IMG/VR virus record: IMGVR_UViG_3300025769_000082 | Source of the DNA: an uncultured virus (IMG/VR IMGVR_UViG_3300025769_000082) | Lineage: Duplodnaviria > Heunggongvirae > Uroviricota > Caudoviricetes | DNA length: 64,000 nt | Direction: 5' to 3' (one strand) | Shown: positions 10,259 to 62,205 of the stretch, one piece after another | Layout of the letters: every line of letters begins with the position of its first letter | Numbering within the stretch: the first letter of the stretch is position 1 | Program-made: the position numbers and the translations under genes | The notes under the pieces: model-generated | Seen by the model: the letters and a program-made list of their open reading frames with translations, nothing else | Told to the model about the DNA's origin: nothing | Databases searched by the model: none

Positions 10259-11847
10259 CCATTCACGTTGGCTTGCATGGCCCGGTCACGCCGTTCCTTG
10301 TTGGATTGGGCTTTCACCCATGCCAGAGACCCCGGGCGGGCACCCGTGTCTCGACGTTTCCCGGAGACATACCGAGACGGGGCCATTTTGTTGAGCCCGA
10401 GCCCGATATACGCCAACGCATCAACAAAATCGTCGTGTGCGCCATGCGGGAATTTCAAAAGTTGGTCCCGAGCCGCCGGATACCAAGCGGCGAACTTGGG
10501 AAAGCGAACTTTCCCCAGCGCCATACGGGCTTGGATGCTCTGGGCTCGGGTTTGTTTGTCTGCGATTGGGGTGATTTCGTCGATAGCACAGAATGTGCGT
10601 TCTTCTATCATGCGCTTGCGGAGAAACGGCCCGATAGATTTCGAGACATGACCCTTTTCCGCCCACCACCAAAGAGGTTGATACGCCTCAATCGTGTTCA
10701 ACATGGCTTCGACCACGACATCGGTCGGCTGTTGCCGCCACCAGACATCGGGCATCACCCAAATGGTCTCGTCGCTGTCTACACCGACCGGGATCAAGAC
10801 CGTCTTGTCTCGGCCTTGTTTCGTTGAGACAGCGTGATCGCTCGCCACATAAAACTTCAACGCCTCTTTCGGCGGCAAGTCTTGGCGGCCATACGTCATA
10901 ATGTGTTCGTCTTTGAAGAAGTTGCCGTCCTCGGGGCTCGGGTGTCCCTGATAGAGAGCCGAGAAACCCCGAGGATCAGCGCGTTGGAGGTCTTTCAAGT
11001 GTTTCGACGAAAAGCGTTCCGGCCATAAGGCAGTGCCCACGGGGCGTTTCAGTGGGTCGTCTTCTTCCGCCAGCGCGGGCAAGTTAATCACTTCCCATTT
11101 CGCGGCCTCGGCGGGCTCGTAGTGGGAGTTCAACGGGTCGGTGAGACGCCCAACGAGGTCGTCTTCGTGCCAGCGGGTCTGGATAATCAGGATTTTACCG
11201 CTATCGGTCATCAGACGAGACTTTAGGTCGTCGTTGTACCAAGACCAGAGTTTATCCCGGATCGTGGGGCTATCGGCTTCTTCCCGGCCCTTGATCGGAT
11301 CGTCGATGATAAGCAAATCACCGCCGCGACCCGTAATCGTACCGCCGCGACCCGCAAAGGCGAGAGCGCCCCCACCTTCAATGGTCATAAAATCGCTGGC
11401 CTGAGACCCGGTCTCAAGACACACTTCGGGGAAGACTTGCGCGTAAAGCGGCGAGCGCATGAGGTTCCGCACAGCCCGGCCCAAGTCCACACTAAACTTT
11501 TCGTTATACGTCGCAACGATAACAGAGTGTTTGGGGTTCTTGCCCATGTACCACGCGGGCGCTGTTTTGGTGGTGATTTGTGTCTTGCCGTGTCTCGGCG
11601 GGGCCGCGAGTATCACCCGTGTCTTGTCTCCGCGCTCCACAGCCATCAAAACGTCGGCTATCAACTTGTGATGCGCTGCGGGCACATAAAGACTTTCCCG
11701 GGGGTCTTCCATGTTGTCGGGATGCGGCATGGTGAGACGCGCAAATTCCAAGAGATCGTCACGCGCTGTTAGGACAGCGCGTTTGCGCCGGAGGAGTAGT
11801 TCCCGGCGTTTGTCTCGTTCAATTTGGGCGTCTATGTCGTGCGTCAT
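10252..11847 (-). CDS. terL: Terminase large subunit (outer phage)
   Basis: PPRHGKT Walker A, LIIDDPIK Walker B, QTRWHEDD, C-terminal HDDFVDA nuclease motif. Confidence 0.95.
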   Translation of the reverse strand: MTHDIDAQIERDKRRELLLRRKRAVLTARDDLLEFARLTMPHPDNMEDPRESLYVPAAHHKLIADVLMAVERGDKTRVILAAPPRHGKTQITTKTAPAWYMGKNPKHSVIVATYNEKFSVDLGRAVRNLMRSPLYAQVFPEVCLETGSQASDFMTIEGGGALAFAGRGGTITGRGGDLLIIDDPIKGREEADSPTIRDKLWSWYNDDLKSRLMTDSGKILIIQTRWHEDDLVGRLTDPLNSHYEPAEAAKWEVINLPALAEEDDPLKRPVGTALWPERFSSKHLKDLQRADPRGFSALYQGHPSPEDGNFFKDEHIMTYGRQDLPPKEALKFYVASDHAVSTKQGRDKTVLIPVGVDSDETIWVMPDVWWRQQPTDVVVEAMLNTIEAYQPLWWWAEKGHVSKSIGPFLRKRMIEERTFCAIDEITPIADKQTRAQSIQARMALGKVRFPKFAAWYPAARDQLLKFPHGAHDDFVDALAYIGLGLNKMAPSRYVSGKRRDTGARPGSLAWVKAQSNKERRDRAMQANVNGW

Positions 11848-15920: not shown

Positions 15921-18065
15921 CTATTTCACGATGCCGTAGAGATTGATGGCCCCTGACGTGAGGTTGCCCGATGTGGAAATCAATCGGAAACCATTGACCG
16001 CCGCAACTGATTTCCAATCGCCGCCCATGGACCATGCAACACTGTTTCCGCCATTGTCAGAAAACGATGAAAGCGCCGTTACCTTGGTATATCGGTCGGT
16101 TGCGGCAGGATTGAAAATTCGGACCAGACTGCAAACGCCCCCTTCACTAGCGTTTGACGTGCCAGCGGCAGCGATGCGAAGTTCATCGTCATTATTTGCG
16201 GCCGTATCATCGTCGCTCCCGGCGCTATCCGCCGCCTTCGCCGCCCAATAATAGGCCGACGTTTCAAACGTCGAGCCCCCATCATCGGAGAACAGCAATT
16301 TCAATGGTTGTGCAGTAGTGTCCAAAAGAATGTTGACCAACTCAAGCTCATACACATCGTAGGTGCCATCAATACCCGTGGTGAAATCCAATGACGAAGA
16401 TGTGCTTGCAGTCTGCGTGTCCAAAAGAACTCGGCTTCCCGCTGGACGAGGCGTATAGAACCCCGTTGCATCGTGCGCTCGATACTCTCGGCTCTCTTTC
16501 GGCCACAGTGGAACCGGATCACGGGCGTCCGTAGTGCCTTCATTAATCGCATCGCCACTGGCGGGCCACACCCAAGCAGCTTCCGCACCGCTGTTCGTAA
16601 TCCAGACACTCCGACCAGCGACAGCACTCGGCAGTACAACACTGTCACCTTGATTAGCGCACGTAGAGATCAGCACGTTATCTGTCGTCAGCGCTTGCCC
16701 ACCTGCTTGTGTTTGTGTGGTGCTGGCTGTGACTGTTCCGACATCCATGATGAAGTTATCGGTAACTGTTAGATCACCTGGAACAGTAATATCGCCACTC
16801 AACTTGGCAGATGTAACGGTACCGTCGGCAGGAGTGCCTACGGACAGCGTAGAACCCGTCGTTGCTTCGACCTCGGCAGTACCAGTCGGTATCGCCGCAT
16901 CAAATGTCACAACTGCGCCAGACAACGACCACGTTGAACGGTGCTGCGTCACACCGTCGAACGATATGGTCGTGTTGTTCTCGGAACCAGGAGAAATAGA
17001 AAGTGTCAACTGCGTGGTCGTACCGCTGGTGTAGTCGGTGGTATCGACAAACGTATCCACCGTCATGTTACCGGCAGAGGCACCGAAGCCAACGCTGGTC
17101 CAGTCATCAGGTGTACCATCCGTATCCGCTATCAGCGTGGAACCAGAACCTGCCGCCGAGATAACCAACGACGCACCGAGGTCGATGGTCTCCGACCCCG
17201 CCGCCGTAACCGTGATAGCGTTGCCGTCGCCGGTCGTCTTCTTTAGGCTGATCCGCCATCCGTTACCTAACGTGGCGATACTTCCGAGGACAATGGAAAC
17301 TGCTCCACCAGAGGTATCAACACTTATCAACTCACCGTCTTGAGCCGCCGTCGGAGTGTAGGGGCTGTCAGCGAACGTGATGTAGGTCACGTCGTTGTAG
17401 ATGATGTTCTCAGCCGAGGCCGCAGCCGAGGCCGCACTTGCTGCAGCGTTGGTCTCACTGGTTGCGGCGTTGGTCTCACTAGTTGCAGCGTTGGTCTCTG
17501 AGGTCTGTGCGTTAGTCTCAGCCGACTCCGCAGCCGTCTGGGCTGCTTCCGCAGCGGCTTGAGCAGCTTCCGCCGCTGCCTGGGCGGTAGCAGTCCCAGC
17601 GACTTCGGTATCTACATAAGCCTTCGTGGCTGCATCCTGAGCCGACGTAGGGTCCGTCACATTCTTGATGGGCTTGGATGCCGCGTTCCAGTGCGCGTCT
17701 GCATAGTCTTCTTGCATAGCTTCGGACGCACGGTCCTCGGCTTCCTGGCTACGGTAGAACGCCTGGGTACTGTCGGTATCTAGATCAGCTTCCGTAAGGT
17801 TACCAGGAGCCGTGTAGTCCACTAGTCGTGTAGCCTTCGAGGAGTTCCGTCGAATTTGAATTACTGCACTACTGGCTGGGATAGAACCCGCATTGAAGCG
17901 GACAGTAGTCCCAGTGACAATCGTGTAGTCGTTCCCCGCTCCTTCAGTCTGGAGGGTACCAGCAACATACACTTCAACGTGGGACTCTTGGAGGTAGGAA
18001 AAGGAAATGGTGTAGTCGGTTGTTACACCGTCCCCGGTGTAGTCGTCAGTCGCAAGTTTTACCAT
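15921..18065 (-). CDS. Tail fibre with T7 gp17-like N-terminal adaptor
   Basis: YTGDGVTTDYTISFSYLQESHVEVYV gp17-type N-terminus, AATSETN repeats; C-terminal ~300 aa nearly identical to 59869-62205. Confidence 0.85.
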   Translation of the reverse strand: MVKLATDDYTGDGVTTDYTISFSYLQESHVEVYVAGTLQTEGAGNDYTIVTGTTVRFNAGSIPASSAVIQIRRNSSKATRLVDYTAPGNLTEADLDTDSTQAFYRSQEAEDRASEAMQEDYADAHWNAASKPIKNVTDPTSAQDAATKAYVDTEVAGTATAQAAAEAAQAAAEAAQTAAESAETNAQTSETNAATSETNAATSETNAAASAASAAASAENIIYNDVTYITFADSPYTPTAAQDGELISVDTSGGAVSIVLGSIATLGNGWRISLKKTTGDGNAITVTAAGSETIDLGASLVISAAGSGSTLIADTDGTPDDWTSVGFGASAGNMTVDTFVDTTDYTSGTTTQLTLSISPGSENNTTISFDGVTQHRSTWSLSGAVVTFDAAIPTGTAEVEATTGSTLSVGTPADGTVTSAKLSGDITVPGDLTVTDNFIMDVGTVTASTTQTQAGGQALTTDNVLISTCANQGDSVVLPSAVAGRSVWITNSGAEAAWVWPASGDAINEGTTDARDPVPLWPKESREYRAHDATGFYTPRPAGSRVLLDTQTASTSSSLDFTTGIDGTYDVYELELVNILLDTTAQPLKLLFSDDGGSTFETSAYYWAAKAADSAGSDDDTAANNDDELRIAAAGTSNASEGGVCSLVRIFNPAATDRYTKVTALSSFSDNGGNSVAWSMGGDWKSVAAVNGFRLISTSGNLTSGAINLYGIVK
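15940..16448. repeat. Direct repeat copy 1 (identical core, ~509 bp)
   Basis: By-eye identity with 59888-60396 (offset 43948); flanks ~15885-15939 and 16449-~16850 similar with mismatches. Confidence 0.92.
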
Positions 18066-36750: not shown

Positions 36751-38448
36751 TCAGACTCCACAGGTTCCACCATGTCCGGTAAGAGAGCAGACATCGTGTG
36801 TTTCAACATGCTCTTCAAACTCCTCACCGAGCCTATTAACAGCGTCTTCATAAGGAACAGACACCAAAGGCTGACCACCACGAGCCCCATCGGGATAAGC
36901 GGTAAAGCCACGAAGGCGATGAGCGTACTTTGAAAGAGCGTCAACAAAACTTCCGACCGTGTCAGGGTTGTTCTCCTTAGAGCCCCACTCAGGGAGGTTA
37001 ATCGTTGAAGAGATCGACATATCAACGAAGTCTTGAACATCGGCCTGGAAACTAATCCGCCGTTCATAGTCAGTAGAGAGATCGATGGCGGACTCGATGG
37101 TTTCCGGCTTGGTTCCATAAAGATCGATAAGCTCTTGGGCAGCGGCGTCTATGACGTACTGGTAGTGCCACCGAGTTCCTGACTTGAGATAACGTCTTCG
37201 ATAAGCAACTGCGTAGACCGGCTCAATTCCTGTAGAGGTCCCTGCAAGTATGCCAATTGAACCTGTAGGCGCGATGGCGCGATTGGCAATAGGTTGGCTA
37301 ATCGATAATGCATTTGAGACACGTTCAGATGTAACGTCACTAACTCGCTTGTAAACGTGGAGCCATCGTTTGAGTTCCTCTGTAACATGGTACTTCTCCC
37401 CTTGTTTGATTAGCCATTCATGTAGCCCCATTAGACCTAGACCGAGACGTCGGTTCTTTTCTCGGACTTGTTTGACTTTGTCATACGGGAGGTCAGCTCG
37501 TAGCGTTCCACACAGTAGGAATGTGGTGGCACACTCAACGACCTCCTTAAGTTCATTAAGCGACTCAATCCGACCAAGATTGAGGGAGCCCAAGTTACAC
37601 ACGTCGCTGTCGTCGGCGCTGGTGACTTCGGTACAGGCGTTTCGTAAGGTCTCGTTCTCTTGCTCAAAGAAGTTGAAGGAGAAACCTGGTTCACCCGTCG
37701 ATAGGGCCTGAAGGCAGTTCTGACGGAATACATCACCTACCTCCCCGGTCTTCCAAAAGTCCAACAACCACTCGGTGTCATAGTTCAATGAAATGTTCGT
37801 CATGTCGAGTGGAGCTGGGAAATTGAAGTCGTCCTTCTTCACGTCAGCTAACGACTGTCCCGTACTACCAACAGGCATATCGTGCCAGTTCTTTGCTGCT
37901 AGAAGTGCGCCAGCATCACCGTGTTTCCAATTCAGGCTGGCGTAGATTGCAGAGCGTCTTGACCCACCCTGCATAACTCTCCGACCAATCTCATTGATCA
38001 TCTGTATCTTTGGGATCGGACCGGAGGACAGACCCCCGGTACCTTTCAGCTTCTGACCTTGGGGACGGTAGACGGAGTAATCCGTCCCAATACCCCCACC
38101 GGTCATCAGACAGCTTTCAGACTTCCACGACAGATTAGCCCAATCCTCCCTGGTGTCTTCCTCAGCGCGAAGGAGATAACAGTTGTTGAAGAACTTCTTA
38201 TCACGTCCCGCGTAATAGAGGTACCGCCCACCAGGGATGAACTTTAGGTCCCTGATGAACTCGTAGGTCCTACTCCGGACATCCTTAGATACACCCCCCG
38301 AGGTAACGTATGGCGACATCACGTCGTCAACGAGAATACGCGAGAGGTCGTCCCAAGTTTCACAACCCTCATGTGCGTACTTGTGATTGAAGATGTCCTC
38401 AGAGAATTGCGAACGAAACATAGGGTTTCGGTTGGAACGAAAAGTCAT
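36751..38448 (-). CDS. nrdJ: Class II (adenosylcobalamin) ribonucleotide reductase
   Basis: PGGRYLY, NNCY, RNACTE, CNLGS, IAPTGSIG motifs; no beta subunit gene nearby. Confidence 0.85.
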   Translation of the reverse strand: MTFRSNRNPMFRSQFSEDIFNHKYAHEGCETWDDLSRILVDDVMSPYVTSGGVSKDVRSRTYEFIRDLKFIPGGRYLYYAGRDKKFFNNCYLLRAEEDTREDWANLSWKSESCLMTGGGIGTDYSVYRPQGQKLKGTGGLSSGPIPKIQMINEIGRRVMQGGSRRSAIYASLNWKHGDAGALLAAKNWHDMPVGSTGQSLADVKKDDFNFPAPLDMTNISLNYDTEWLLDFWKTGEVGDVFRQNCLQALSTGEPGFSFNFFEQENETLRNACTEVTSADDSDVCNLGSLNLGRIESLNELKEVVECATTFLLCGTLRADLPYDKVKQVREKNRRLGLGLMGLHEWLIKQGEKYHVTEELKRWLHVYKRVSDVTSERVSNALSISQPIANRAIAPTGSIGILAGTSTGIEPVYAVAYRRRYLKSGTRWHYQYVIDAAAQELIDLYGTKPETIESAIDLSTDYERRISFQADVQDFVDMSISSTINLPEWGSKENNPDTVGSFVDALSKYAHRLRGFTAYPDGARGGQPLVSVPYEDAVNRLGEEFEEHVETHDVCSLTGHGGTCGV

Positions 38449-38882
38449 ATGGTGTCCTCTATCAAAATTTCCATTTCAGGTGGTTGGTAATTAGGTCCTT
38501 TAAGAATTTTCCCGTCTTCCCGTCGAATAGGACGCCCGTCGTCTCCTAATTTAGTCATGTTGGAATCGTGAACACGCTTGAACGCGGCATCCTTAGGTAG
38601 ACCGAAGGTCACGAACATACTGTCCAATACGTACTGGAGATCACACAGTTCCTTAAGGAGGTTTGCCTTACACCGACGCTGGGTAGCCGCACCCTTCTTC
38701 ATGTAAATGGCATTGTGAACAGCGCGTACTGCCTCCCCTACCTCAAGGAACTCCTCAGCGATTAAGGTCATTGAGAGACCAAGGTCATTGAGTGTGGTTG
38801 AGTCTAGTGGGAGATCAACTGGCTTCTCGTAAGCCTCATGCATTTGACGAACGAGATTAACACTACCGGCATACCGCATCAT
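38445..38882 (-). CDS. MazG-like NTP pyrophosphohydrolase
   Basis: EEFLE...KELCDLQYV, RVHDSNMTK, RREDGKILKGPNY. Confidence 0.85.
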   Translation of the reverse strand: MMRYAGSVNLVRQMHEAYEKPVDLPLDSTTLNDLGLSMTLIAEEFLEVGEAVRAVHNAIYMKKGAATQRRCKANLLKELCDLQYVLDSMFVTFGLPKDAAFKRVHDSNMTKLGDDGRPIRREDGKILKGPNYQPPEMEILIEDTI

Positions 38883-45826: not shown

Positions 45827-45851
45827 CTCCTCTATAAGGGTCCGCTATTAA
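45827..45851 (-). promoter_or_regulatory. Phage RNAP promoter
   Basis: TTAATAGCGGACCCTTATAGAGGAG, T7-like layout, 24/25 identical to 50631-50655. Confidence 0.85.
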
Positions 45852-45882: not shown

Positions 45883-47547
45883 TTAGGAAAAGAAAAAGTC
45901 CGCCTTCAAGACCTCAGAAACCTCGAAGTCACCGAGAGGTGGGGGATCGGGTAGTGACACACCGACGGCGTTTCGGGCGACGCTTTCGTGGAAGGTTACG
46001 AGCCAGTTATCTTTGTACATATCATAAGCGACCTCACGAGTGACATGTGCCAGCCGTGAGGCGTGACACGCATGGACACCATATGAGTCGTGGATCACGT
46101 CGAAGTCTGTTATCCCCTCAGACGTAAGCCGGTTGATAACCATCTGACACATAGCCGCATCTTGGGAATGGACGACGTTTGGTGATGCCGCGAGGGTAGA
46201 CTTACGGAGATTGATGCCAAGGCCCTCTTCCGCTGTAAACAGACGCAGCTTACCGCACAAAGTATTCACACGACCGGCAGACAGGTTGTGATATGACTGT
46301 GTTAGGGTGGAGCCTATCGAGTTGCTCCACATGAACGGCATGTGCTGCTCACTGACTGCGCGGGCACACTTTTGGAAGTAGCCCATCAGTTCCTTACCTT
46401 TCGTAATTGTACCTTCGAGTGCCTCAGATATACACTCTTGGAGATACTTAGCCGCTGAGAGTCGGTCACCCACGTCAAAGATTTCGGTGAAGCCATCACT
46501 CATAATTTGCGTCTGGATACCACGCTCGGTCACTCCATAGCTTGTTGTCATACACGCCCGTTTGACGTGGTTACGTTTGAGTGCTGGGGCCCACTTGGAC
46601 GCGAGTGGGTGTCCGGTACAGACGTCTTCATGGACGCGGGCCTTCACACGATTGAGGACCTCAAGATATAGGTCCTGACGGGGACCAGGGGCACAGTTGG
46701 TCGCTACAGCACCGACCGGGTCCCTAGCCATTAACGACAGATGCTGTAGCCCGTTTTGGGAACCGTCGATGTTGACGGGTAGATGACTATGGAAGTCGAA
46801 GGGGTCAGACAACTCCGACGCTAACCGTAACTCATGAGCCGTCGCTAGGAACTGTAACGGGTCCTCAAGTTCTAGCCACCAGCGGTTTTCTTCCGGGTTT
46901 TCTACGCACTCAAAGGCTCGGGTCAGGTGGTCCTGGGCCCACGTTATCCTATCATCCCTTGTCAGTTTATCCTGACCCGCTGTTGTCGCTAACCGGAACA
47001 ACAACCATCTGTAACCTTCAAGCCCAATACGCTCACCGTCGGCAAACATCAGTAGTGACTTGACGAGGTCTGGGCCTTGCGGGTGAAATTCCTGACTCAT
47101 CGGATACATACGTGTCCGGAAATCAAAGTTCCAAGGATGCCAGTGACGCTCATACTTCGACATCATCTGGGCGACATGGAGTACGCGGATGATGACGGCG
47201 TATTTGTTTAAGGCTGTCCCGTTCATTGAATGGACATCACCCCGGTAGCGTTTATGGTAGGTCCTCTGTTCTTCAGACATCGCCGCCCAGGTCTCAGCGT
47301 CATACTTCGGTGGCATGGGTTCCAAGGCCAGGCCAGGAATGATACCACCCAACGAGTCTTCCGCTGCGTTAGCTTTCTGTAGTACGTCGAGGATGTACTG
47401 GTTCACTCGGCGAGGTGTTGCTTGGACACTGTTTAGGGCATCGACAGCACCCTGTGATATGAATTGTGGCGATCCCGCAGTGTGCCGGTGGAGCGTCTCG
47501 GTCACGAACGGTGTTTGGATTAGGTAATACCCGCCTGTATAGCTCAA
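45883..47547 (-). CDS. T7-like RNA polymerase, C-terminal catalytic part
   Basis: DFRTRMY, DGSQNGLQH (motif A), RNHVKRACMTTSYG (B), IHDSY (C), ends DFFFS; TTG start after GGAGG. Confidence 0.92.
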   Translation of the reverse strand: MSYTGGYYLIQTPFVTETLHRHTAGSPQFISQGAVDALNSVQATPRRVNQYILDVLQKANAAEDSLGGIIPGLALEPMPPKYDAETWAAMSEEQRTYHKRYRGDVHSMNGTALNKYAVIIRVLHVAQMMSKYERHWHPWNFDFRTRMYPMSQEFHPQGPDLVKSLLMFADGERIGLEGYRWLLFRLATTAGQDKLTRDDRITWAQDHLTRAFECVENPEENRWWLELEDPLQFLATAHELRLASELSDPFDFHSHLPVNIDGSQNGLQHLSLMARDPVGAVATNCAPGPRQDLYLEVLNRVKARVHEDVCTGHPLASKWAPALKRNHVKRACMTTSYGVTERGIQTQIMSDGFTEIFDVGDRLSAAKYLQECISEALEGTITKGKELMGYFQKCARAVSEQHMPFMWSNSIGSTLTQSYHNLSAGRVNTLCGKLRLFTAEEGLGINLRKSTLAASPNVVHSQDAAMCQMVINRLTSEGITDFDVIHDSYGVHACHASRLAHVTREVAYDMYKDNWLVTFHESVARNAVGVSLPDPPPLGDFEVSEVLKADFFFS

Positions 47548-47710
47548 GTTCTGCCTCCATATTAGTTATGCGACGTTGTAAGTTGTCAGCGTCACGACAC
47601 GCATCGAGGTATCTAATCCTGTAACCCTGAGGGTCTTCTGGTGGTTGGGGTTGAGGTGTATCTGGCTTGTTGAATCTATCGCTCAGATACTCATGATCGT
47701 CATAGGCCAC
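47369..47710 (-). CDS. Small ORF between the two RNAP halves
   Basis: GTG start after GAGGAG; coiled-coil-like N-half; 3' half overlaps RNAP C-part in another frame. Confidence 0.5.
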   Translation of the reverse strand: MAYDDHEYLSDRFNKPDTPQPQPPEDPQGYRIRYLDACRDADNLQRRITNMEAELELYRRVLPNPNTVRDRDAPPAHCGIATIHITGCCRCPKQCPSNTSPSEPVHPRRTTES

Positions 47711-48524
47711 TTACTGTCTCCTCATCGAGTTGCCAAGGTAGTGGGGGTGCAATCATCGGTAGTCGGTATGGTTGTGATGTCGATAACTCTTCGTTGATGG
47801 TCTTGAGAGCAGCAATAGCCTCGGGAGCGACACGTATCACTCGCTTCTGTTGTCCTCTGTGGGCGAACGAGTATAGGTAGAACCACCCACCCCCGTGTGT
47901 GATTGCTGTATGTAATAGGGCGGCACCAACATGCGCTCGGGTACCGGATGACCACTCAGTCCGTTTGATATCTTCCCGACCAGAACGCCACTTCTGAAAA
48001 ATCCTACGGGTTACGACACCTTTCTTAGAGCCAATAATCCTTGCTGCATCCTCAGAGGCCCGCCGCCAATTCTCAAAGTCGATCTCGTCACGGACGGCAT
48101 CAGCAATAGCTAGTGATACCCGAGTCACACCCGCATCCACCTCTACCGAGGATAAGGTGTAGCAGTTCAGGATTATCCGGACAGTGATCAGTGCTAGTTT
48201 ATCAGCGGGAAGGGCTGTAACACCAACAGCCCACCCAGGTTGTGGTCCACGCTTACCAGCACTTACCTTAGCCGAAGCTTGTAGATCGAGGATGCCCCTG
48301 AGTAGGCCCTGGTCCTCGGTACCCACGATGTCCCGAGCTATCCTCATACCAGCATCACCGTCACCAATACCGACCTCCGTCCGCGTCACTGATCCGTCCG
48401 GTCGGCGCTTAACCCGCCACTGCTTTTCACGGAACCGTTGGATGCCTTCCTCGACACCTGAAATCTCCAATTTCTTCTGAGCTTCAACTTGATGAATGTT
48501 CACAGTGTTCCGTTGGTGTGCCAT
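47700..48524 (-). CDS. T7-like RNA polymerase, N-terminal domain part
   Basis: QKKLE...GIQRFR, WS....AHVGAALL, PMIAPPLPW match T7 RNAP N-terminal landmarks; start 48524 after AAGGGG. Confidence 0.85.
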   Translation of the reverse strand: MAHQRNTVNIHQVEAQKKLEISGVEEGIQRFREKQWRVKRRPDGSVTRTEVGIGDGDAGMRIARDIVGTEDQGLLRGILDLQASAKVSAGKRGPQPGWAVGVTALPADKLALITVRIILNCYTLSSVEVDAGVTRVSLAIADAVRDEIDFENWRRASEDAARIIGSKKGVVTRRIFQKWRSGREDIKRTEWSSGTRAHVGAALLHTAITHGGGWFYLYSFAHRGQQKRVIRVAPEAIAALKTINEELSTSQPYRLPMIAPPLPWQLDEETVSGL

Positions 48525-48754
48525 TGATAACCCCTTGTTCCTATCGGCTCCAACGCATAACCCCGGCTTATCGGGGGCGGCGCATACGTCGTCTACGCTT
48601 CCAGATGTCATCGTGTGTCGCTTTCCTCGCTCGTTTCGCTAAAAACCTTAATACCTCACCCTTGCGTAGCGCCTGTTGCCCTCGTTCGTCGTGGCTCGGG
48701 TGATACACATTGATACACATTGATATATCATCAATCGGCTTTGATATATCATAG

Positions 48755-49270: not shown

Positions 49271-50389
49271 CTAAGAGGTGTTTAATAGATCAGCCGCACG
49301 TTGGGACACCTCAGCTACATCCACATGGATGTACTTAGAGGTCATCGAGGTCCCTGTGTGACCGAGGAGAGGCATAATCTGAGCGATGGATAACCCCCGC
49401 ATAGCGAGCTTGGTCGCAAACGTATCACGCAGGGTATGTACCGTAGCGGTACCGCGTGTCTTAACGATGGACCTATCATCGTTAAGCCCTGCTCGGTTCA
49501 TCGCGGCACGTATGGACTCGGTGGAGTGAGCCCTATGGTTCTTAGGGTCCACCTTGCACTTATACCACCGTGGGAACACATACATATTAGCCCCTCGGTT
49601 GTCCCAACGCCGACGTATGACCGAGTACAGTCGATCGGTCATAATCAAGTTAGCCTCATTACCGACCTTCTGCCGGTACAAGTTGATCGTGCGGCAGTTC
49701 ATGGACACAGATGACCATGATGTAGATACCGCCTCGCCGTGGCGACAACCAGTGTCCAACAGGTATACCACAAGATCATAGGCGTCTTGCATCATCTGCC
49801 GCCGAGGTGTCCCCATGTCCGAGGAGGCTCCTTCGACCGGACGATGTGGATCGAGTTCGTGGAGTAGCCGCTCCTCCTCTTCCAGCGTCAGCGACCTTGT
49901 CTTCGGTTTGTAACGGAATGTCGGAAAGGACACGACCGGTTGTACATCATACCCCCAATGGTCCTTAGCCAACTTCCACACACGCTTAAGCTGTTGTACC
50001 TCGATACAGATCGTAGACTCAGCCAATCCCTCAGCAAACCGAGCCTCGACCAACGTACTGATTAAAGCAGACGTGAGATCAAGTAGTGGCGTACTGAGTG
50101 GTAAACGGAAACCCGGGCCGTCACCAAACAGCTTATCACGCCGCCACTGGGCTTGGCGTTTGGTGGACGGTAGTCTCAGAGTACCAAGGTATCGATCCAT
50201 AGCGTCTACCAGACGTACACGCTCCTTATCACCGAACTGATGAGAATTGAGGCGTCGCTCATACTCGGTAGCTTCTACTCTACGAGCATCAGTCTTATTC
50301 GTACGTTTGGTAGACCCACGGTATCGCTTACCACCAACGGTAAAATCGTACCACCAATAGTTAGAGCGTTGTTTCCTGATAAGTGACAT
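49271..50389 (-). CDS. int: Tyrosine integrase
   Basis: Arm-binding N-terminus, TGCR, HTLRDT, LGH, Y catalytic motifs. Confidence 0.95.
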   Translation of the reverse strand: MSLIRKQRSNYWWYDFTVGGKRYRGSTKRTNKTDARRVEATEYERRLNSHQFGDKERVRLVDAMDRYLGTLRLPSTKRQAQWRRDKLFGDGPGFRLPLSTPLLDLTSALISTLVEARFAEGLAESTICIEVQQLKRVWKLAKDHWGYDVQPVVSFPTFRYKPKTRSLTLEEEERLLHELDPHRPVEGASSDMGTPRRQMMQDAYDLVVYLLDTGCRHGEAVSTSWSSVSMNCRTINLYRQKVGNEANLIMTDRLYSVIRRRWDNRGANMYVFPRWYKCKVDPKNHRAHSTESIRAAMNRAGLNDDRSIVKTRGTATVHTLRDTFATKLAMRGLSIAQIMPLLGHTGTSMTSKYIHVDVAEVSQRAADLLNTS

Positions 50390-50398
50390 ATCTGATGT

Positions 50399-50623
50399 TA
50401 CCCTTTGGTTTCTCCTGGTACCCTTGGTACCCTTTGGTTTCTCCTGGTACCCTTTAGTTTCGGAAATCCTCCAGTTTCGGAAATCCAGATAAGAGCCTTC
50501 TTAAGGTGTCACTCTAGGTGTCACTCTAGGTGTCACTCTAAGTGGACCTTAGTGGACCTAGGTCTCTTTAGGTTTATAGTATATATTGTCATTCATAGAG
50601 TGATACTCTAAGTGATACTCTAA
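50399..50623. repeat. Non-coding array of short direct repeats (candidate attP arms or origin)
   Basis: ACCCTTTGGTTTCTCCTGGTACCCTT x2, AGTTTCGGAAATCC x2, AGGTGTCACTCT x3, AGTGGACCT x2, AGTGATACTCTA x2. Confidence 0.75.
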
Positions 50624-50630: not shown

Positions 50631-50655
50631 CTCCTCTATAAGGGTCCTCTATTAA
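50631..50655 (-). promoter_or_regulatory. Phage RNAP promoter
   Basis: TTAATAGAGGACCCTTATAGAGGAG. Confidence 0.85.
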
Positions 50656-55596: not shown

Positions 55597-57483
55597 TCAG
55601 TGGACGGTCATAAAGACCTCGGCTCGGAAGCCATCCGCCTTACGTTTACCGCGACGGGTCCTCGGACCTAGCTTGAAGCCTTCCTCATAGTTCTCGAGGA
55701 AGTCGTCTACCTCATCTTGCATTCGTTGGTCGTGGATAGCCTGAGCGGCGTCGTCCACGTCTTGACCCATAGCGAGTGTGAAATGAGCGACGGCCCCTGC
55801 AAGGGCGTCGAGACGGTCTTCATGCTTTAGGCACTTACGATCTCTAGTGATATGCGTAAGTTGATATAACAGGCTGTAAGCCAGCTCATCGTCACGTCGT
55901 CGGGCTTCGTGGCGGGCAACAGACTCATCTAGAACCAGACGGTGCTGGGTCATTACGGTCTCAAGGGTATCAATGATACGCGCCTCTTTCTGCCCCTTAG
56001 CCCATGCGGACTCCTTGACGGTACAACCTCCAGGCCAGACCTTAGCCAGTACAGGGCCGAATGCAGCAACCCACATACCTTGACCATAGTTAGGTTCGAC
56101 CTCAACGACGTTCACGTTGAAACGCTTAGCGTCCACAGCGATCTGCGTCATTGCCTCGGCTGGGTCCCCCGCATGACCCCCAGAATGGAGACAGTACAGG
56201 ATACCATTGAGGTTCTTTACGACGGCCCATGCCGTCTCATCCTTACCCCGACCAGCAGGGTCTACAAACAACACTGAGCCCTCATAGTGTTCCCAGGTGT
56301 CATCCACCATCAATGGACGAAGCATAAAGTCCCCTGAGAACCCTACGTTGGGGATATCCTTGACGACGTTCTTGGCGTCAGAGTGTCTCCCCCATTGAAG
56401 GGTAAGGGGTGCTTTCGTCGGATTGATTGAGAAGATCATGAGGTCATGTTGCTTAAGTGGATACTTCTCAGCATCGGATAGCGCAGTATCCAACATATAC
56501 TGAAGGGAATACCAAGCCCTACCACCAGCCTCCAGCTTACTAAGCTCATCCAAGGAGAAGCGAGCCGGGTCAGTAATCTGACCGTAATCCATATCACCTT
56601 GGTCATGGAGTTCCCTGAGGTAGAACGCGAGAATGTTTACACGTTCGTCAGTGTCCTCGACCTTAAGTTCGTAGTTCTCGACCTTATCATGGGTTGGGTA
56701 ACGAATAGGGATAGCGAAACATCGAAAGCCCTGCTCCGTAACCTGACGGTTATAGACGGACTCCTCGGTCTGTGGTGTCCCTAAGTAGAAGATATCCCCA
56801 CGACCATGCTCAGTCTTAACAATGGCCTCAAACTCCCGACAGATGTCGATGAGTTGTTGTCGTGCTTCCTCGGACTTAGAGTTCTGAGGTATCTCGATAT
56901 CATCCGCAATAATGGTTGTAGCACGGTCACCCGTAACCTGGCCCAGGATAGCCGCAGCACGAACTGAGGGGCTCTGGGACAAGCTCGATAGAGCGACGTC
57001 AAACCGATCCGCTTGGTCACGCCTATGCGCCCCATCCTCCCTATGACCCTCTAGGAGCCATTGGTAGATCGGCATAGAACTCAGGAGTGCCCGTAGCTGA
57101 GACACGAAGGCTTTGGACTTATTAGCCGTAGCCGACGTCACAAGTATCTTCTCGTCCCTTGGGTTCCTGGCAAGCAACCAAGCACCAAAAGCTGCAGTGA
57201 TGTAGGACTTACCGACACCACGGAAACAGCGAATGATATCCTTCCGGTGCTCATCACGAAGAGCCTCACGCTCAGGGACACTTAGGTACGCCCATTCGTG
57301 GCTGTCTGCCCCATACTGAAGACGTGCAGCGATCTCAAGCTGAGCCTTGGTAGGCGTTGGTAGACCTAGGTGTTCCCAGGTGACTACCAGCGCGTTCCTA
57401 AAGTCCTCGAAGATCGACCATACGTCCTCAGGGAACCGTTGCTCCCAATGAGGACGGCCATCTACGAGAGACGGTTTAAGCAT
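55597..57483 (-). CDS. terL: Terminase large subunit (T7 gp19-like)
   Basis: FRGVGKSYIT, IIADDIE, LGTPQTE, DPAGRGKDET, QKEARIIDTLE, HEDRLDAL. Confidence 0.95.
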   Translation of the reverse strand: MLKPSLVDGRPHWEQRFPEDVWSIFEDFRNALVVTWEHLGLPTPTKAQLEIAARLQYGADSHEWAYLSVPEREALRDEHRKDIIRCFRGVGKSYITAAFGAWLLARNPRDEKILVTSATANKSKAFVSQLRALLSSMPIYQWLLEGHREDGAHRRDQADRFDVALSSLSQSPSVRAAAILGQVTGDRATTIIADDIEIPQNSKSEEARQQLIDICREFEAIVKTEHGRGDIFYLGTPQTEESVYNRQVTEQGFRCFAIPIRYPTHDKVENYELKVEDTDERVNILAFYLRELHDQGDMDYGQITDPARFSLDELSKLEAGGRAWYSLQYMLDTALSDAEKYPLKQHDLMIFSINPTKAPLTLQWGRHSDAKNVVKDIPNVGFSGDFMLRPLMVDDTWEHYEGSVLFVDPAGRGKDETAWAVVKNLNGILYCLHSGGHAGDPAEAMTQIAVDAKRFNVNVVEVEPNYGQGMWVAAFGPVLAKVWPGGCTVKESAWAKGQKEARIIDTLETVMTQHRLVLDESVARHEARRRDDELAYSLLYQLTHITRDRKCLKHEDRLDALAGAVAHFTLAMGQDVDDAAQAIHDQRMQDEVDDFLENYEEGFKLGPRTRRGKRKADGFRAEVFMTVH

Positions 57484-57697
57484 GACCTAAAGGCTTATAC
57501 TCTGCCGAGGCCGCATACTTCTTTAGCATCGGACTAACTTGTTCAGCCGTCGTAATCTCGGATGCGTTGTGGAACAACTTGAGGAAGCCGACTGCGGCAT
57601 TAAGCATAGGAGCCGCTACGTCCTCCACTTCGACCTGAGTGATCAGGGCCTTAAGGACCGCTTGTTTCAGGTCATGCGTCGTCTTTTCGTCTGACAT
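57476..57697 (-). CDS. Terminase small subunit (T7 gp18-like)
   Basis: MLNAAVGFLK motif; overlaps TerL start. Confidence 0.65.
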   Translation of the reverse strand: MSDEKTTHDLKQAVLKALITQVEVEDVAAPMLNAAVGFLKLFHNASEITTAEQVSPMLKKYAASAEYKPLGHA

Positions 57698-58173
57698 TAA
57701 AACTCCAGTGTTACTGCGAGGGCTGCTACAGCAATAGCTACAGCCAAGGCTTCGAGACCCTCAACGTACCTGTTGGAATGACCCGGCCAGTCCTGACGCT
57801 CCACCCATGGACGAAGCCAGGGCTGGCAGACATTCGCTGCATAGATCAGGATGAACCCGAAGGTGCCTAAGGTCATTGGGTATACGTCGTAGACCGTAAG
57901 TCCACATAGGAATACACCAGCGACTAAGGACGGCCAGGGACGGATTAACATAGGCTTAAACATATCCCACTTATTGTACCCAGCAGTCAGGCACCGCCCG
58001 TATAGACCGCCCACAACAAGAGCAACCACACAGTTGTAAGTCGTACCAAAGACGCTGAGGACGCATAAGGTGTAACCAAGGATTGTGGAGCCCTTGATCC
58101 TAAAGGGCCAGCCTCCATCAGAGACACGCCACGCTGGGAGGAGAACGCTGAGGAAGCTAGTTAGAAATGTCAT
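57697..58173 (-). CDS. Multi-pass membrane protein (homolog of 11858-12298)
   Basis: Shared WRVSDGGW, QPWLR and NRYVE motifs. Confidence 0.7.
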   Translation of the reverse strand: MTFLTSFLSVLLPAWRVSDGGWPFRIKGSTILGYTLCVLSVFGTTYNCVVALVVGGLYGRCLTAGYNKWDMFKPMLIRPWPSLVAGVFLCGLTVYDVYPMTLGTFGFILIYAANVCQPWLRPWVERQDWPGHSNRYVEGLEALAVAIAVAALAVTLEF

Positions 58174-58565
58174 TGATGATCCTTCCAGACCTTTACGCCC
58201 TTCTCGACCGAGCGGCCTACGATATAGCCACCTATACCGATCTTAAGGAGATCGAAGACGGCCAAGAGGACTGACTCTGGCATGTTCTCGGGTTGAATAC
58301 CGAACCAGTAGAGAAATAGGAGACCAAGGAACGAAAGCATAGTGATTGGTCGCCAATTACGTTGGAGCCAACTCTCACCTTGAGCCTCTGCGACGATGAT
58401 CTGCGCCGCCGCTTCAATCTCTTTCATCTGACCTGTGAGGACCATTTCCTGCAGCTTCGCCTTAATAGCGGCGGCTTGGTCCTTGTCCTCTACAGATTGA
58501 TCAATGACACTGAATATTCCTTTGAGAAGAGGAGCAGCGACGGCTGTAAGAATTCCTCCAATCAT
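58170..58565 (-). CDS. 3TM-type holin
   Basis: AEAQGESWLQRNWRP and GIGGYIVGRSVEK motifs; start MIGG likely. Confidence 0.8.
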   Translation of the reverse strand: MIGGILTAVAAPLLKGIFSVIDQSVEDKDQAAAIKAKLQEMVLTGQMKEIEAAAQIIVAEAQGESWLQRNWRPITMLSFLGLLFLYWFGIQPENMPESVLLAVFDLLKIGIGGYIVGRSVEKGVKVWKDHQ

Positions 58566-58566
58566 A

Positions 58567-58941
58567 TTAAGCTCCAGAGTTAATATTGACAAGGATGACG
58601 AAGTAATTATAAGGAGCGTCTTTATGAGTCGCTAGACGCCAGACTGATAAAAGATTGCCTGAGTCTTTAGCCACATAAGTATAGATATGCTCTTCAAGAG
58701 TAACCTCAAGAATCACTTGGAATTGTATACAGTCCCCTTTACTGAGTAAGGTGTGGTAGAAGTTTGAGGCTTCCTTGAAGCCCTTAGTCTCATTCTTTAC
58801 CGCTAACTCTAGAATAGCACTCTCAGATACACAGACCCAACTGGTCCTACCTGTTTCCCCAGGTTCGTATGCGCTAGCTGGATTCAAGCCATACGTAAGC
58901 ATTACCACCACGGCCAATACCGCAGCGATGAAGTTCTTCAT
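58567..58941 (-). CDS. Secreted hypothetical protein
   Basis: N-terminal signal peptide, two Cys. Confidence 0.65.
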   Translation of the reverse strand: MKNFIAAVLAVVVMLTYGLNPASAYEPGETGRTSWVCVSESAILELAVKNETKGFKEASNFYHTLLSKGDCIQFQVILEVTLEEHIYTYVAKDSGNLLSVWRLATHKDAPYNYFVILVNINSGA

Positions 58942-58981
58942 ATGATATAAGTTCCTTTGAGTCTTTGGGGGGCTGAGGGAC

Positions 58982-59212
58982 CTAGTAAGTATTTCCCCCT
59001 AGGTACCCTGCGATAGCACCAGCAGCTAGGATAAGACCTACAACTAGGCGTTCTACCATGGTGCGATTATTGACCTTATCCTCTAGACGACCAACACGTC
59101 CGTTCTGTTTTTCGACGTTCTCTTTGATCGTTAAGACATGAGTTTCTATCCGTGCTAACCTATCGATTACTTGTGGATGGACTTCACGTCGTTCATTGGA
59201 ATTATCGGACAC
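58982..59212 (-). CDS. Coiled-coil protein with C-terminal TM (lysis-cassette type)
   Basis: RLARIET...QNGRVGRLE followed by TM. Confidence 0.6.
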   Translation of the reverse strand: MSDNSNERREVHPQVIDRLARIETHVLTIKENVEKQNGRVGRLEDKVNNRTMVERLVVGLILAAGAIAGYLGGNTY

Positions 59213-59226
59213 TATTTATTACCAAT

Positions 59227-59859
59227 TTACTTCTTGATGCCGTAGACGGCGATGGTGCCAGACGCCATGTTGCCACTGAATTTGAATTGAAGACCATTAT
59301 AAACAGCACCAACAGTGTATGCTCCCCCGTAATAAAACCCACGGGAAATAGAACTTGTGGCTTCTACATATGCGCCTGTCATATGAAACTGAAAATACGG
59401 CGTAGCACCAGCCATGCGACATTGAGCAATAAAGGATACTCCACCTTCAGAAGCATCATTGCTCACACCTCCTGCTGTAAAACTAAATGAAGCGGCTCCG
59501 TTATTGTTGACAGCGGTTGTCGTACCCGCTTGATTGGTTTCAGTGCCGCCAGCATGATAGTTACCCGCTGTTTCATAGGTAGCCCCGAGGTCATCGGACA
59601 CCAGCATCTCTAGACCTTGCGCGTCCGTCGATGGAACGATGTTTGTAGCAATTACTTCAATTACGTCAAACGTGCCATCACCCATCGCCGCGTCTGCAAA
59701 ATCCAATGACGCGGATGTGCTGGCGGTTTGTGTGTCTATCAGAACACGATTTCCCGGCAATGCCGCCGCCAGCCGCTCCGCGTAAGTATTAACGCCAGAC
59801 TGGTCGATGGTTTCACCTAAAACACCGCCGATCAGGTTCTTTGAGATTGTAGTTGCCAT
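59227..59859 (-). CDS. Secondary tail protein carrying a paralog of the tail-fibre tip domain
   Basis: RVLIDTQTASTSASLDF...SGTIAVYGIKK parallels RVLLDTQTASTSSSLDF...SGAINLYGIVK. Confidence 0.75.
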   Translation of the reverse strand: MATTISKNLIGGVLGETIDQSGVNTYAERLAAALPGNRVLIDTQTASTSASLDFADAAMGDGTFDVIEVIATNIVPSTDAQGLEMLVSDDLGATYETAGNYHAGGTETNQAGTTTAVNNNGAASFSFTAGGVSNDASEGGVSFIAQCRMAGATPYFQFHMTGAYVEATSSISRGFYYGGAYTVGAVYNGLQFKFSGNMASGTIAVYGIKK

Positions 59860-59868
59860 GATCTTTTC

Positions 59869-62205
59869 CTATTTCACGATACCATAAAGATTGATGGCCC
59901 CTGACGTGAGGTTGCCCGATGTGGAAATCAATCGGAAACCATTGACCGCCGCAACTGATTTCCAATCGCCGCCCATGGACCATGCAACACTGTTTCCGCC
60001 ATTGTCAGAAAACGATGAAAGCGCCGTTACCTTGGTATATCGGTCGGTTGCGGCAGGATTGAAAATTCGGACCAGACTGCAAACGCCCCCTTCACTAGCG
60101 TTTGACGTGCCAGCGGCAGCGATGCGAAGTTCATCGTCATTATTTGCGGCCGTATCATCGTCGCTCCCGGCGCTATCCGCCGCCTTCGCCGCCCAATAAT
60201 AGGCCGACGTTTCAAACGTCGAGCCCCCATCATCGGAGAACAGCAATTTCAATGGTTGTGCAGTAGTGTCCAAAAGAATGTTGACCAACTCAAGCTCATA
60301 CACATCGTAGGTGCCATCAATACCCGTGGTGAAATCCAATGACGAAGATGTGCTTGCAGTCTGCGTGTCCAAAAGAACTCGGCTTCCCGCTGGACGTGGC
60401 GTATAGAACCCCGTTGCATCATGCGCTCGATACTCCCGGCTCTCTTTCGGCCACAATGGGACAGGATCACGGGCGTCCGTAGTGCCTTCGTTGATTGCGT
60501 CACCACTCGCGGGCCATACCCACGCAGCTTCCGCCCCGCTGTTTGTAATCCAGACACTTCGACCAGCCGCAGCACTCGGCAACACAACACTGTCACCTTG
60601 ATTAGCGCACGTAGAGATCAGCACGTTATCTGTCGTCAGTGCTTGCCCACCTGCTTGTGTTTGTGTGGTGCTAGCCGTGACTGTTCCAACATCCATGATG
60701 AAGTTATCGGTGACGGTCAGATCGCCTGGGACAGTAAGATCGCCACTCAACTTCGCAGATGTAACCGTGCCATCGGCGGGAGTACCCACGGACAGAGTAG
60801 TACCAGTTACAGCTTCAACCTCTCCTACTCCTGCGGGAATAGCAGCATCAAAGGTTACGGTGACGTTGGATACGGTGTAAGTGGAATGGTGTTGGAATAC
60901 CCCATCAAAGAAGATTTGTACGTTGTTCTCTGATCCTGGGGCAGTAGACAATGTTACGGTAGTAGACGAACCCGCCGTAAAATCTACGCCGTCCGTCAAA
61001 GTATCAACCGTCATATCCCCCGCGCCACCCCCGAAAGATACACTAGCCCAGTCATCAGGAGATAAATCTATATCTCCAGTATATGTTGCAGCAGAACCAG
61101 ACACCCCGAGCGTGTCGCTAGCCCCGAGATTAATGGTATCGGTCCCGTTAGGAGTTACCGTTACTGCGTTACCGTCTCCTGTAGACTTTTTAATGGTGAT
61201 CCGCCACCCATTCCCCGCAGTAGCAATACTAGGTAGGTTAACGGTGACAGCACCCCCCGAGGTGTCTACACTGATTAACTCCCCATCCTGTGTAGTAGCG
61301 AGTGTATAGGGGCTGTCAGAATTGGTAATATAGGTTACGTCGTTAAACAGTATCTTGTCGGCAGAAGCCGCCGCTGCCGCCGCACTCGCCGCCGCGTTGG
61401 TCTCAGACGTACTGGCGTTTGACGCCGAGGTACTGGCGGCGCCCGCAGACGCCGCCGCGTTTGTCTCGGCTGTCTCAGCCGCCGCCTGTGCCGCCTCCGC
61501 CGCGCTCTGCGCTGTCTCAGCCGCCGTCTGGGCCGCATTCACGCCATACGCCATAGCCCGAACTTGATAATTATTCGTCCCGACAGTCGTATTCGCCGAA
61601 AAAGTGAGGCTTGTCCCCGAGACAGTGTAATCTGTCACCGGGTCCATGATGTTTCCGTTGTGGTCAAAGACGAAAAGGATGTTTTCGTCCGTCCCCATGT
61701 TCTCGGAGAGGGTAAACGGCCCCGTCGTCCCGTCCCCGGAGAGGCGATCAGCCAAAACAGTCGCGTCTACACTCTCAGGAGACGCAAAAATCTGCCAATA
61801 TGAGTTTGTCGTGAAGTCCGTCGCGAACGCCCCGGACGTATGCGCCACGATGCACACATAACTCGCGCCGTCCACTTGCACCACGTCTGACAATGCATAG
61901 TCTGTCGCCGTGACCCAAGCCCCCAAGAAATTCAGATTGGTGTTCAAAAGCGCCAAAACGTCCGACCCAATCTGATCGACGTCGATGGACCCCCCTTTCA
62001 AGTACCCATCGTCGCCAATCTGTGTCCGAACGAAATCAACAATGTCAGCGATCCGCCCCCGGTGGTGGGCAAACTCCGCGTCGAGTTTGTCTCCGGGCTG
62101 TTGATCCGTCGGATTACTCGTTGAGTAATCTTCAAAATCATATTGCTGTGTGGGTGCTGTAGGGGCCGCCATCCAAATGCCTCCCGCCGGGTTAGGGTCG
62201 GTCAT
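59869..62205 (-). CDS. Tail fibre with outer-phage N-terminus
   Basis: N-terminus unrelated to gp17-type; C-terminal part shared with 15921-18065; start may be 62172. Confidence 0.8.
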   Translation of the reverse strand: MTDPNPAGGIWMAAPTAPTQQYDFEDYSTSNPTDQQPGDKLDAEFAHHRGRIADIVDFVRTQIGDDGYLKGGSIDVDQIGSDVLALLNTNLNFLGAWVTATDYALSDVVQVDGASYVCIVAHTSGAFATDFTTNSYWQIFASPESVDATVLADRLSGDGTTGPFTLSENMGTDENILFVFDHNGNIMDPVTDYTVSGTSLTFSANTTVGTNNYQVRAMAYGVNAAQTAAETAQSAAEAAQAAAETAETNAAASAGAASTSASNASTSETNAAASAAAAAASADKILFNDVTYITNSDSPYTLATTQDGELISVDTSGGAVTVNLPSIATAGNGWRITIKKSTGDGNAVTVTPNGTDTINLGASDTLGVSGSAATYTGDIDLSPDDWASVSFGGGAGDMTVDTLTDGVDFTAGSSTTVTLSTAPGSENNVQIFFDGVFQHHSTYTVSNVTVTFDAAIPAGVGEVEAVTGTTLSVGTPADGTVTSAKLSGDLTVPGDLTVTDNFIMDVGTVTASTTQTQAGGQALTTDNVLISTCANQGDSVVLPSAAAGRSVWITNSGAEAAWVWPASGDAINEGTTDARDPVPLWPKESREYRAHDATGFYTPRPAGSRVLLDTQTASTSSSLDFTTGIDGTYDVYELELVNILLDTTAQPLKLLFSDDGGSTFETSAYYWAAKAADSAGSDDDTAANNDDELRIAAAGTSNASEGGVCSLVRIFNPAATDRYTKVTALSSFSDNGGNSVAWSMGGDWKSVAAVNGFRLISTSGNLTSGAINLYGIVK
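59888..60396. repeat. Direct repeat copy 2 (identical core)
   Basis: Matches 15940-16448. Confidence 0.92.

Follow-up and report, generated by a model that had tools for sequence, protein, structure and literature searches.

We analysed a stretch of 64,000 nucleotides (nt) from an uncultured virus of the Caudoviricetes (IMG/VR record IMGVR_UViG_3300025769_000082; the whole stretch is called the window below), with a focus on its genes for a T7-type RNA polymerase (RNAP). T7 RNAP is the standard example of a single-chain polymerase and is widely relied on in biotechnology, where it has also been engineered in split form for logic gates and biosensors. In the window, a T7-type RNAP is very probably made naturally as two proteins that are translated separately and associate non-covalently. 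An N piece of 274 amino acids (aa), corresponding to T7 residues ~1-278, would supply the promoter-binding and refolding part of the enzyme, and a C piece of 554 aa would supply everything from the GGY motif on, namely the thumb, palm, fingers, specificity loop and active site. The break lies in the short surface linker W278-G283, which in the clade of close relatives is often replaced by a stop codon, a spacer and a restart, and the C piece would be translated from its own ribosome-binding site. Judged from the family as a whole, the two-gene RNAP is a real and old arrangement that is common to many uncultured relatives.

Two genes for one T7-type polymerase

Both genes were found on the minus strand (Table 1). 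The initial annotation had described two open reading frames (ORFs) of 274 and 554 aa that are 152 nt apart and in different frames, with GGAGG 6 nt before a TTG start, and this layout proved correct in every sequence detail. The N ORF encodes 274 aa when read from the ATG at 48524 and 303 aa when read from an in-frame ATG at 48611; its C-terminal end is PMIAPPLPWQLDEETVSGL, followed by the stop codon at 47700-47702 (-). The 5' codons of the C ORF are TTG-AGC-TAT-ACA-GGC-GGG, which give L/M-S-Y-T-G-G at the head of L/M-SYTGGYY. A step of +1 leads from the N frame to the frame of a third ORF and another +1 step leads from there to the C frame, all three frames being distinct.

The N ORF matched the Pfam family RPOL_N (PF14700, 9e-15) and the C ORF matched RNA_pol (PF00940, 3.4e-83), with the catalytic domain at C-piece residues 173-525. 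The C piece was additionally assigned to PHROG 414 RNA polymerase (1.8e-137) over profile positions 249-816 of 816. A HMMER comparison with the PDB sequences placed the N ORF on T7 RNAP residues 94-279 and the C ORF on residues 317/318-882, with an alignment envelope from T7 residue 283, and the two pieces covered non-overlapping parts of the enzyme. As had been annotated, T7 RNAP is unbroken across the joint, where PPKPW(278)TGITGGGY(283-286) stands on one chain with W278 and GGGY five residues apart; alignment to T7 mapped the break in the window to W278/G283. The initial annotation had placed the break at the junction between the N-terminal domain and the core, and this held only in part. 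The cut does separate the promoter-binding part from the rest, but it lies inside the N-terminal domain, which in T7 RNAP conventionally comprises residues 1-325, and the C piece therefore keeps the last ~40 residues of that domain.

In particular, the C piece contains the end of the N-terminal domain, the thumb, palm and fingers, motifs A (NIDGSQNGLQH), B (KRACMTTSYG) and C (HDS) and a C-terminal DFFFS, as read from the alignment to T7. The DxxGR-type motif of the window (DFRTR) was also located on the C piece, together with the thumb. Residues D261, K329, Y337, G338, H486, D487 and F553 were invariant across 36 aligned C pieces, in agreement with the annotation of the three motifs and the aromatic C-terminus as intact. 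The N piece contains GKRGPQP, which aligned with the region of the T7 AT-rich recognition loop, as well as a β-hairpin and the terminal PPLPW. The two pieces together amount to 828 aa, the normal length anticipated (~830 aa), with a full-size N-terminal domain. A T7-like single-subunit RNAP is one polypeptide; here, and likewise in most close relatives, a stop codon, a spacer and a frame change interrupt it.

By its alignment position, the specificity loop is on the C piece. Since the C piece carries this loop and the rest of the N-terminal domain, promoter recognition and catalysis should need both pieces. We infer that the N and C proteins bind each other and that their complex is the active enzyme.

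The N piece was modelled alone by AF2 from 42 stand-alone homologues. The model (pLDDT 92.1, pTM 0.84) has a β-hairpin at residues 215-232, which would be the counterpart of the T7 intercalating hairpin. The best Foldseek matches of the model were T7 RNAP chains (E 1.7e-9, TMq up to 0.68), and on this model we assign the free N piece confidently to the fold of the T7 N-terminal domain. Structural overlays with the elongation complexes 8dh1, 1msw and 1h38 gave TMq values of 0.63-0.68 and a root mean square deviation (rmsd) of 5-6 Å, whereas those with the promoter and initiation complexes 1cez and 3e2e gave 0.44-0.46 and 13-14 Å. The elongation-like shape may be a modelling bias, or it may hint at the resting state of the unlinked domain.

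Stand-alone relatives and independent copies

To collect relatives of the C piece, 5.8 billion proteins were searched, and the best 120 matches were taken, with the window's own protein excluded. These showed 36-55% identity. We found that 101 of the 120 were at most 600 aa long and contained only the catalytic domain, while the other 19 were fused proteins of 808-850 aa; the initial annotation had named uniformly unsplit close relatives as evidence that would speak against a natural split, and the relatives turned out otherwise. Among the 101 short proteins, GG[YFW] begins at residue 4-16 in 97, the same start site as in the window, and the remaining four have a variant motif at the start or a start further downstream. 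For the N piece, 1.84 billion representatives were searched exhaustively with HMMER, and 254 proteins matched at E 0.001 or better. The best 150 of these comprised 138 proteins of at most 350 aa, 10 fused proteins (772-910 aa) and two of intermediate length, and the matches stopped at PPLPW of the query (the PxPW motif). A word-based search with the N piece gave no match besides itself.

Every match of the window's C piece in the collection of cultured phages searched was at or below 33% identity, and the RNAP was fused in all six of the phages Eistla, Paso, Atu_ph03, HTVC022P, MedDCM-S45-C18 and MedDCM-S46-C10. Of the genome records searched, the one nearest to the window (G001) had no RNAP match.

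In a lone copy, a stop codon, an out-of-frame spacer of 152 nt and a rare TTG restart resemble damage, and they could be taken for a broken gene, that is, a pseudogene in a decaying prophage with an inactive RNAP. However, relatives at 37-55% identity retain this cut and two full-length pieces, the catalytic motifs are intact, a ribosome-binding site stands at the restart, and the surrounding T7-like gene set is intact. The ratio of non-synonymous to synonymous changes (dN/dS) was also well below 1. Over nine pairs of split relatives, most of them near saturation at synonymous sites, the N gene had dN/dS values of 0.076-0.55 and the C gene values of 0.089-0.36; in L155/L188, the pair least affected by saturation, they were 0.076 and 0.089, respectively. 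On these ratios, purifying selection acts on both pieces. We consider decay very improbable, and the description of the locus as a natural split and not a decaying pseudogene is upheld by a stand-alone N and C family with the same cut, by purifying selection and by an independent variant with the same layout.

This variant (L001) matched the window with 99.78% identity over 7299 nt without gaps. Over a stretch of 3500 nt, the two were 99.66% identical with 0 gaps; the N gene carried three changes, two of them synonymous and one non-synonymous, the C gene a single synonymous one and the spacer none. Two further viral-contig records were 100% identical to the window, L002 over 9662 nt and L003 over 4492 nt, the latter reaching only the end of the C gene. 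Additionally, the N protein cluster was listed on 15 contigs. An assembly artefact is very unlikely. The idea that the stop codon and the frame change come from an assembly or sequencing error draws on nothing beyond the general possibility of such errors in metagenome assemblies, and given these copies it deserves next to no credence.

The joint between the pieces

We used our own N and C profiles to classify the window and 234 loci drawn from collections of viruses, genomes and metagenomes. The RNAP was fused at 135 loci and split at 41; 50 had a partial C match and nine had no N match on the locus. The 41 split rows consisted of 29 in class A, 11 in class B and one (L215) that the script called split but that looks like a frameshifted fused gene and was excluded from both classes. 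Class A, which represents 25 distinct phages, is cut like the window between PxPW and GGY (T7 W278 / G283), and these are the relatives with the same split that had been sought. Class B, found in metagenomic loci such as L071, is cut ~20 residues later, at T7 H300/S301. Its N piece ends in ...GGGYH..LPxVRxH, its C piece starts with MRK.., and the two genes overlap by 1-4 nt or sit at most 38 nt apart. When a class B C piece was compared with cultured phages, every match was at or below 40.1% identity.

Class A loci were located in genome records of Asaia, Devosia, Variovorax and Rhizobacter, among them Devosia enhydra ATCC 23634 (L089) and Variovorax sp. J22G73 (L100), and in metagenome-assembled genomes (MAGs) with the labels Acetobacteraceae, Thalassobaculaceae, Rhodospirillales, Magnetococcales and Xylophilus. 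One split-RNAP locus occurs twice in a 5-Mb Thalassobaculaceae MAG chromosome (L088 and L096), ~0.5 Mb apart and in opposite orientation, with identical coordinates and scores of the N and C matches.

The spacers of the relatives carry varied genes. A Bro-N protein (3.7e-22) was found in the spacer of L095, and opposite-strand ORFs, including one for a SWIM zinc-finger protein, were found in that of L099. The spacer of L085 (1961-3351), a prophage in a Proteobacteria MAG, contains genes of 267 and 195 aa with overlapping stop and start and no Pfam family; this two-gene cassette could be a moron with a role in defence or of a toxin-antitoxin-like type. Two homologous pairs (L155/L188 and L157/L159) have small ORFs whose translation is coupled to the N stop, at the site where the window has its third-frame ORF. 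This third-frame ORF spans the entire spacer and extends 179 nt into the C gene, and GAGGAG is present 7 nt 5' of its GTG, at 47718-47723. Pfam and PHROG yielded no family and a word search no homologue for it; the ORF is a candidate for a small gene of the kind seen in the relatives' spacers, or may be what is left of such a gene.

A single polypeptide could still be produced if the two genes were joined by recoding (two +1 frameshifts or hopping), by RNA splicing or by protein splicing. The third-frame ORF lends this some appeal, as it starts on the N stop and passes the C start, with the three frames +1 apart. A CUA-to-CUA hop, however, lands in the third frame and not in the C frame, and two programmed shifts would be needed. 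An intron or structured RNA in the spacer was rejected, as the spacer had no Rfam match (best E 8.7) and its RNA structure was no better than that of shuffles (z 0.04), and an intein was rejected because Pfam shows no such domain. At this joint, relatives carry as much as ~1.7 kb of DNA, with genes on the opposite strand. Because the genes in the relatives' spacers are unrelated and partly on the opposite strand, read-through, frameshifting, hopping and splicing are excluded as a general route of joining. We regard a joined product as scarcely credible; to judge from these spacers, the pieces are separate proteins and are not joined by recoding.

A homing-endonuclease insertion as the cause of the split was also considered and rejected. 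We checked 22 spacer ORFs for families, 21 from relatives and the window's own, and none matched a nuclease family; one was Bro-N, one was a SWIM zinc finger and 20 had none. Within the window's spacer, neither a terminator-like site nor a minus-strand sigma-70-like site was found. Since the two RNAP genes are co-oriented and no terminator-like site lies between them, they are probably co-transcribed.

To trace the history of the cut, trees of the C domain were built with FastTree under the LG model and rooted on T7, with 163 sequences and then with 167, the latter set adding HTVC025P and three named phages. The class A loci L188, L196 and L204, in which the C piece is cut by the contig end, and exact duplicates were left out. 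Class B was monophyletic (11 of 11, support 1.0). HTVC025P fell with fused marine phages in a 7-leaf clade (support 0.865), which was nested in a 24-leaf clade that also contained class B. Class A lay within another, separate clade of 42 leaves, where 22 split leaves were interleaved with 20 fused ones; its support was 0.385 in the 163-sequence tree and 0.858 in the 167-sequence tree. Parsimony on the 163-sequence tree counted eight changes between the split and fused states. On these trees, a cut near the W278-G283 joint arose at least three times, and within the window's 42-leaf clade the state flipped repeatedly. The pattern could reflect one old split and about six re-fusions, or many independent splits. 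The clade illustrates that such a gene can flip between split and fused forms and gather unrelated genes at the joint.

The linker between W and GGY also differed between these groups. Among the fused proteins within the 42-leaf clade it measured 8-17 residues (median 10, n=20), whereas outside the clade it measured exactly five residues in 97 of 109, six fused loci not being placeable in this count. A long and variable linker is compatible with pieces that re-fused over an earlier spacer as well as with an easily cut loop.

The initial annotation had further suggested that the N piece might be a regulatable initiation subunit in a temperate phage. Put more fully, the N piece would be a dissociable, sigma-like initiation factor in separate supply, and the polymerase would form a two-input transcription switch. 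Several features agree with this idea: the N piece has the T7-like AT-rich-loop region and the β-hairpin, the pieces have separate translation starts, the genes of relatives lie up to ~1.7 kb apart and may have a Bro-N antirepressor-like protein between them, an integrase is directly upstream, and AF2 models a free N piece that is nearer the elongation fold than the promoter-bound one. However, that choice of conformation may be a modelling bias, and in T7 the refolded N-terminal domain belongs to the elongation complex and is not expected to leave. Fused relatives adjoin integrases too, and the idea is therefore not tied to a temperate life style. Split and fused forms also alternate freely in the clade, which suggests near-equivalent states. 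As the two forms alternate and the fused relatives are equally temperate, we do not favour a regulatable initiation subunit and consider a sigma-like factor quite improbable.

A broader proposal takes the W278-G283 linker as both a gene-insertion site and a regulatory joint, with the N piece dosed separately in a sigma-like manner and the cargo, such as small coupled ORFs, the Bro-N antirepressor-like protein and two-gene cassettes, co-expressed with the assembly or controlling it, so that in temperate T7-like phages an AND gate would connect lysogeny and lytic transcription. We hold this only as a tentative idea and think it unlikely; if true, the repeated switching between split and fused forms would reflect selection on control and not neutral drift. 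The clade, with its enzyme kept in two pieces, is a natural experiment on whether linking the refolding N-terminal domain to the body of the enzyme matters for the transition from initiation to elongation.

Some observations weigh against a functional two-protein RNAP in the window. The C piece starts with TTG, whereas ATG is used in most relatives. The distance from N stop to C start in class A ranges from -4 to ~1685 nt, with the 152 nt of the window in mid-range, and the relatives' values are approximate, the start being set at whichever ATG, GTG or TTG most closely precedes the GGY motif. A third-frame ORF runs across the spacer, and the putative phage promoter was found in only two copies. 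The evidence for selection on the window copy itself is thin, with four differences to L001, and the case against decay rests mainly on the family.

Known split polymerases and genomic setting

Fragmented RNAP genes have been described in HTVC019Pvirus group III pelagiphages and in a Fonsibacter prophage (Chen et al. 2019, mSystems, PMC6811365). The passage on these genes reports no unsplit reads and judges the interruption not to be recent (PMC6811365). In the portion of that paper that concerns them, a fragmented RNAP is already in print in one paragraph, for pelagiphages, and relative to that text the gain here is breadth and detail and no new principle. Added here are a distinct cut site, a large independent clade of proteobacterial prophages, a labile split state and a joint into which extra genes are placed.

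In the GenBank entry for HTVC025P (MH598799), gp09 (329 aa) and gp12 (558 aa) are both labelled RNA polymerase; the small genes gp10 and gp11 lie between the pieces and an integrase lies upstream. HTVC025P and the window are alike in being temperate T7-like podoviruses with co-oriented N and C pieces downstream of an integrase. In contrast, HTVC025P is cut at about T7 residue 292 with GGYY kept on the N piece, whereas the window is cut at 278/283, before GGY. The C pieces share 27.6% identity and belong to the 7-leaf and the 42-leaf clade, respectively, and the carriers are SAR11 for HTVC025P and prophages of Alpha- and Betaproteobacteria for the window's clade. Class B resembles the window in having adjacent N and C genes in T7-like phage contigs, with the cut at H300/S301 instead of 278/283; an engineered seam of T7 RNAP may also lie near residue 301. 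Boeckman et al. 2022 reportedly concerns temperate T7-like phages. Our literature search, which covered few subscription journals, found no other paper on a natural RNAP split in Autographiviridae.

The initial annotation had named RNAPII of coliphage N4 as the known heterodimeric relative. This enzyme is indeed a heterodimer, of gp15 (269 aa) and gp16 (404 aa), and the reconstituted heterodimer is stated to be active in the relevant sections of the source (Lenneman and Rothman-Denes 2015, PMC4496689); a closer precedent, however, is found among the pelagiphages (PMC6811365), for example HTVC025P. As those sections describe it, N4 RNAPII resembles the window in that two proteins cover non-overlapping parts of T7 RNAP with all motifs between them. 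The N4 cut comes later, with the N-terminus, thumb and DxxGR on gp15 and the palm and fingers on gp16 (PMC4496689), whereas in the window the thumb and DFRTR are on the C piece. N4 RNAPII is also reduced (673 aa, compared with 828 aa and a full-size N-terminal domain in the window), and it is described there as being without sequence-specific recognition of a double-strand promoter and as needing gp1 and gp2 (PMC4496689).

In engineered T7 RNAP, surface-exposed seams are tolerated and co-expressed fragments reassemble, according to the passages on splitting in Segall-Shapiro et al. 2014 (PMC4299498). The cut at 278/283 is not among the seams that these passages name (67, 179 and 601), and the natural clade would offer halves that self-assemble and have been tuned by evolution. 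A T7 phage engineered to make its RNAP as two peptides is described as having strongly reduced fitness at the start (text of PMC6009699 on this construct). That split is artificial and carried this initial cost, while the split of the window is natural and kept across a clade.

The coordinates of the polymerase locus and of the associated features are collected in Table 1. The minus-strand order is integrase, three small ORFs, RNAP N and RNAP C, in a T7-like gene set. These are followed by a gp2.5-like single-stranded DNA-binding protein (SSB), RusA, primase/helicase, endonuclease VII, DNA polymerase, exonuclease, a MazG-like protein and ribonucleotide reductase, and then by the portal, scaffold, capsid, tail tube proteins, internal virion proteins and fibre. 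The initial annotation had likewise recognised an autographivirus gene set around the RNAP genes.

Table 1. Features of the split polymerase locus and its surroundings in the window
Feature	Position	Strand	Description
RNAP N piece gene	47700..48524	-	T7 RNAP residues ~1-278; Pfam, T7 alignment
Spacer between RNAP genes	47548..47699	-	152 nt
Third-frame ORF	47369..47710	-	113 aa, GTG start overlapping N stop (GTGGCCTATGA)
GGAGG ribosome-binding site	47554..47558	-	6 nt 5' of C-piece TTG; read from sequence
RNAP C piece gene	45883..47547	-	554 aa, TTG start; T7 ~283-883
T7-promoter-like 22-mer	45830..45851	-	directly downstream of RNAP C gene
Tyrosine integrase	49271..50389	-	upstream of and co-oriented with RNAP genes; PHROG 1 integrase 1.4e-39
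T7-promoter-like 22-mer, second copy	50634..50655	-	upstream of integrase-RNAP block

The putative promoter is the 22-mer TTAATAG(A/C)GGACCCTTATAGAG, of which the 64-kb window contains two exact copies, with 0 expected by chance. It resembles T7 phi1.1A/B (TTAATA...TATAG) and is one base longer, and the copy downstream of the C gene stands right after the RNAP gene, as phi1.1A/B do after T7 gene 1. A looser 14-mer search of the window gave no further copy, and a repeat search of 9000-51500 gave no further promoter-like family among the 20 largest families listed. The annotated conservation of cognate promoters rests on these two sites, which lend it thin support.

Between the upstream 22-mer and the start of the integrase, at 50396-50620 (-), we observed dense short tandem direct repeats of two to three copies each. 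The repeat units are CTTAGAGTATCA, AAGGTCCACT, TAGAGTGACACC and GGATTTCCGAAACT, together with a 29-nt unit at 50396-50453, and the repeats look like arrays of protein-binding sites in a control region of the integrase-RNAP block.

The replication module includes a gene similar to the ribonucleotide reductase large subunit (36751-38448) and one for a MazG-like pyrophosphohydrolase (38445-38882). Such auxiliary genes are common in marine T7-like phages.

Two unrelated large-terminase genes are present in the window (regions 8129-11847 and 55597-62205), with 25% identity over 107 aa (E 0.022). The first (10252-11847) is followed by a P22-like portal (8129-10258), and the DNA there has a higher G+C content (0.57). 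The second (55597-57483) is T7-sized (628 aa) and is found, together with a holin and another set of tail fibres, upstream of the integrase. The two terminases may reflect tandem prophages, or one prophage that is permuted relative to the T7 map. The proteins encoded at 15921-18065, 59227-59859 and 59869-62205 share a common C-terminal module (PHROG 14820), and two of these three are tail fibres, one at either end of the T7-like region.

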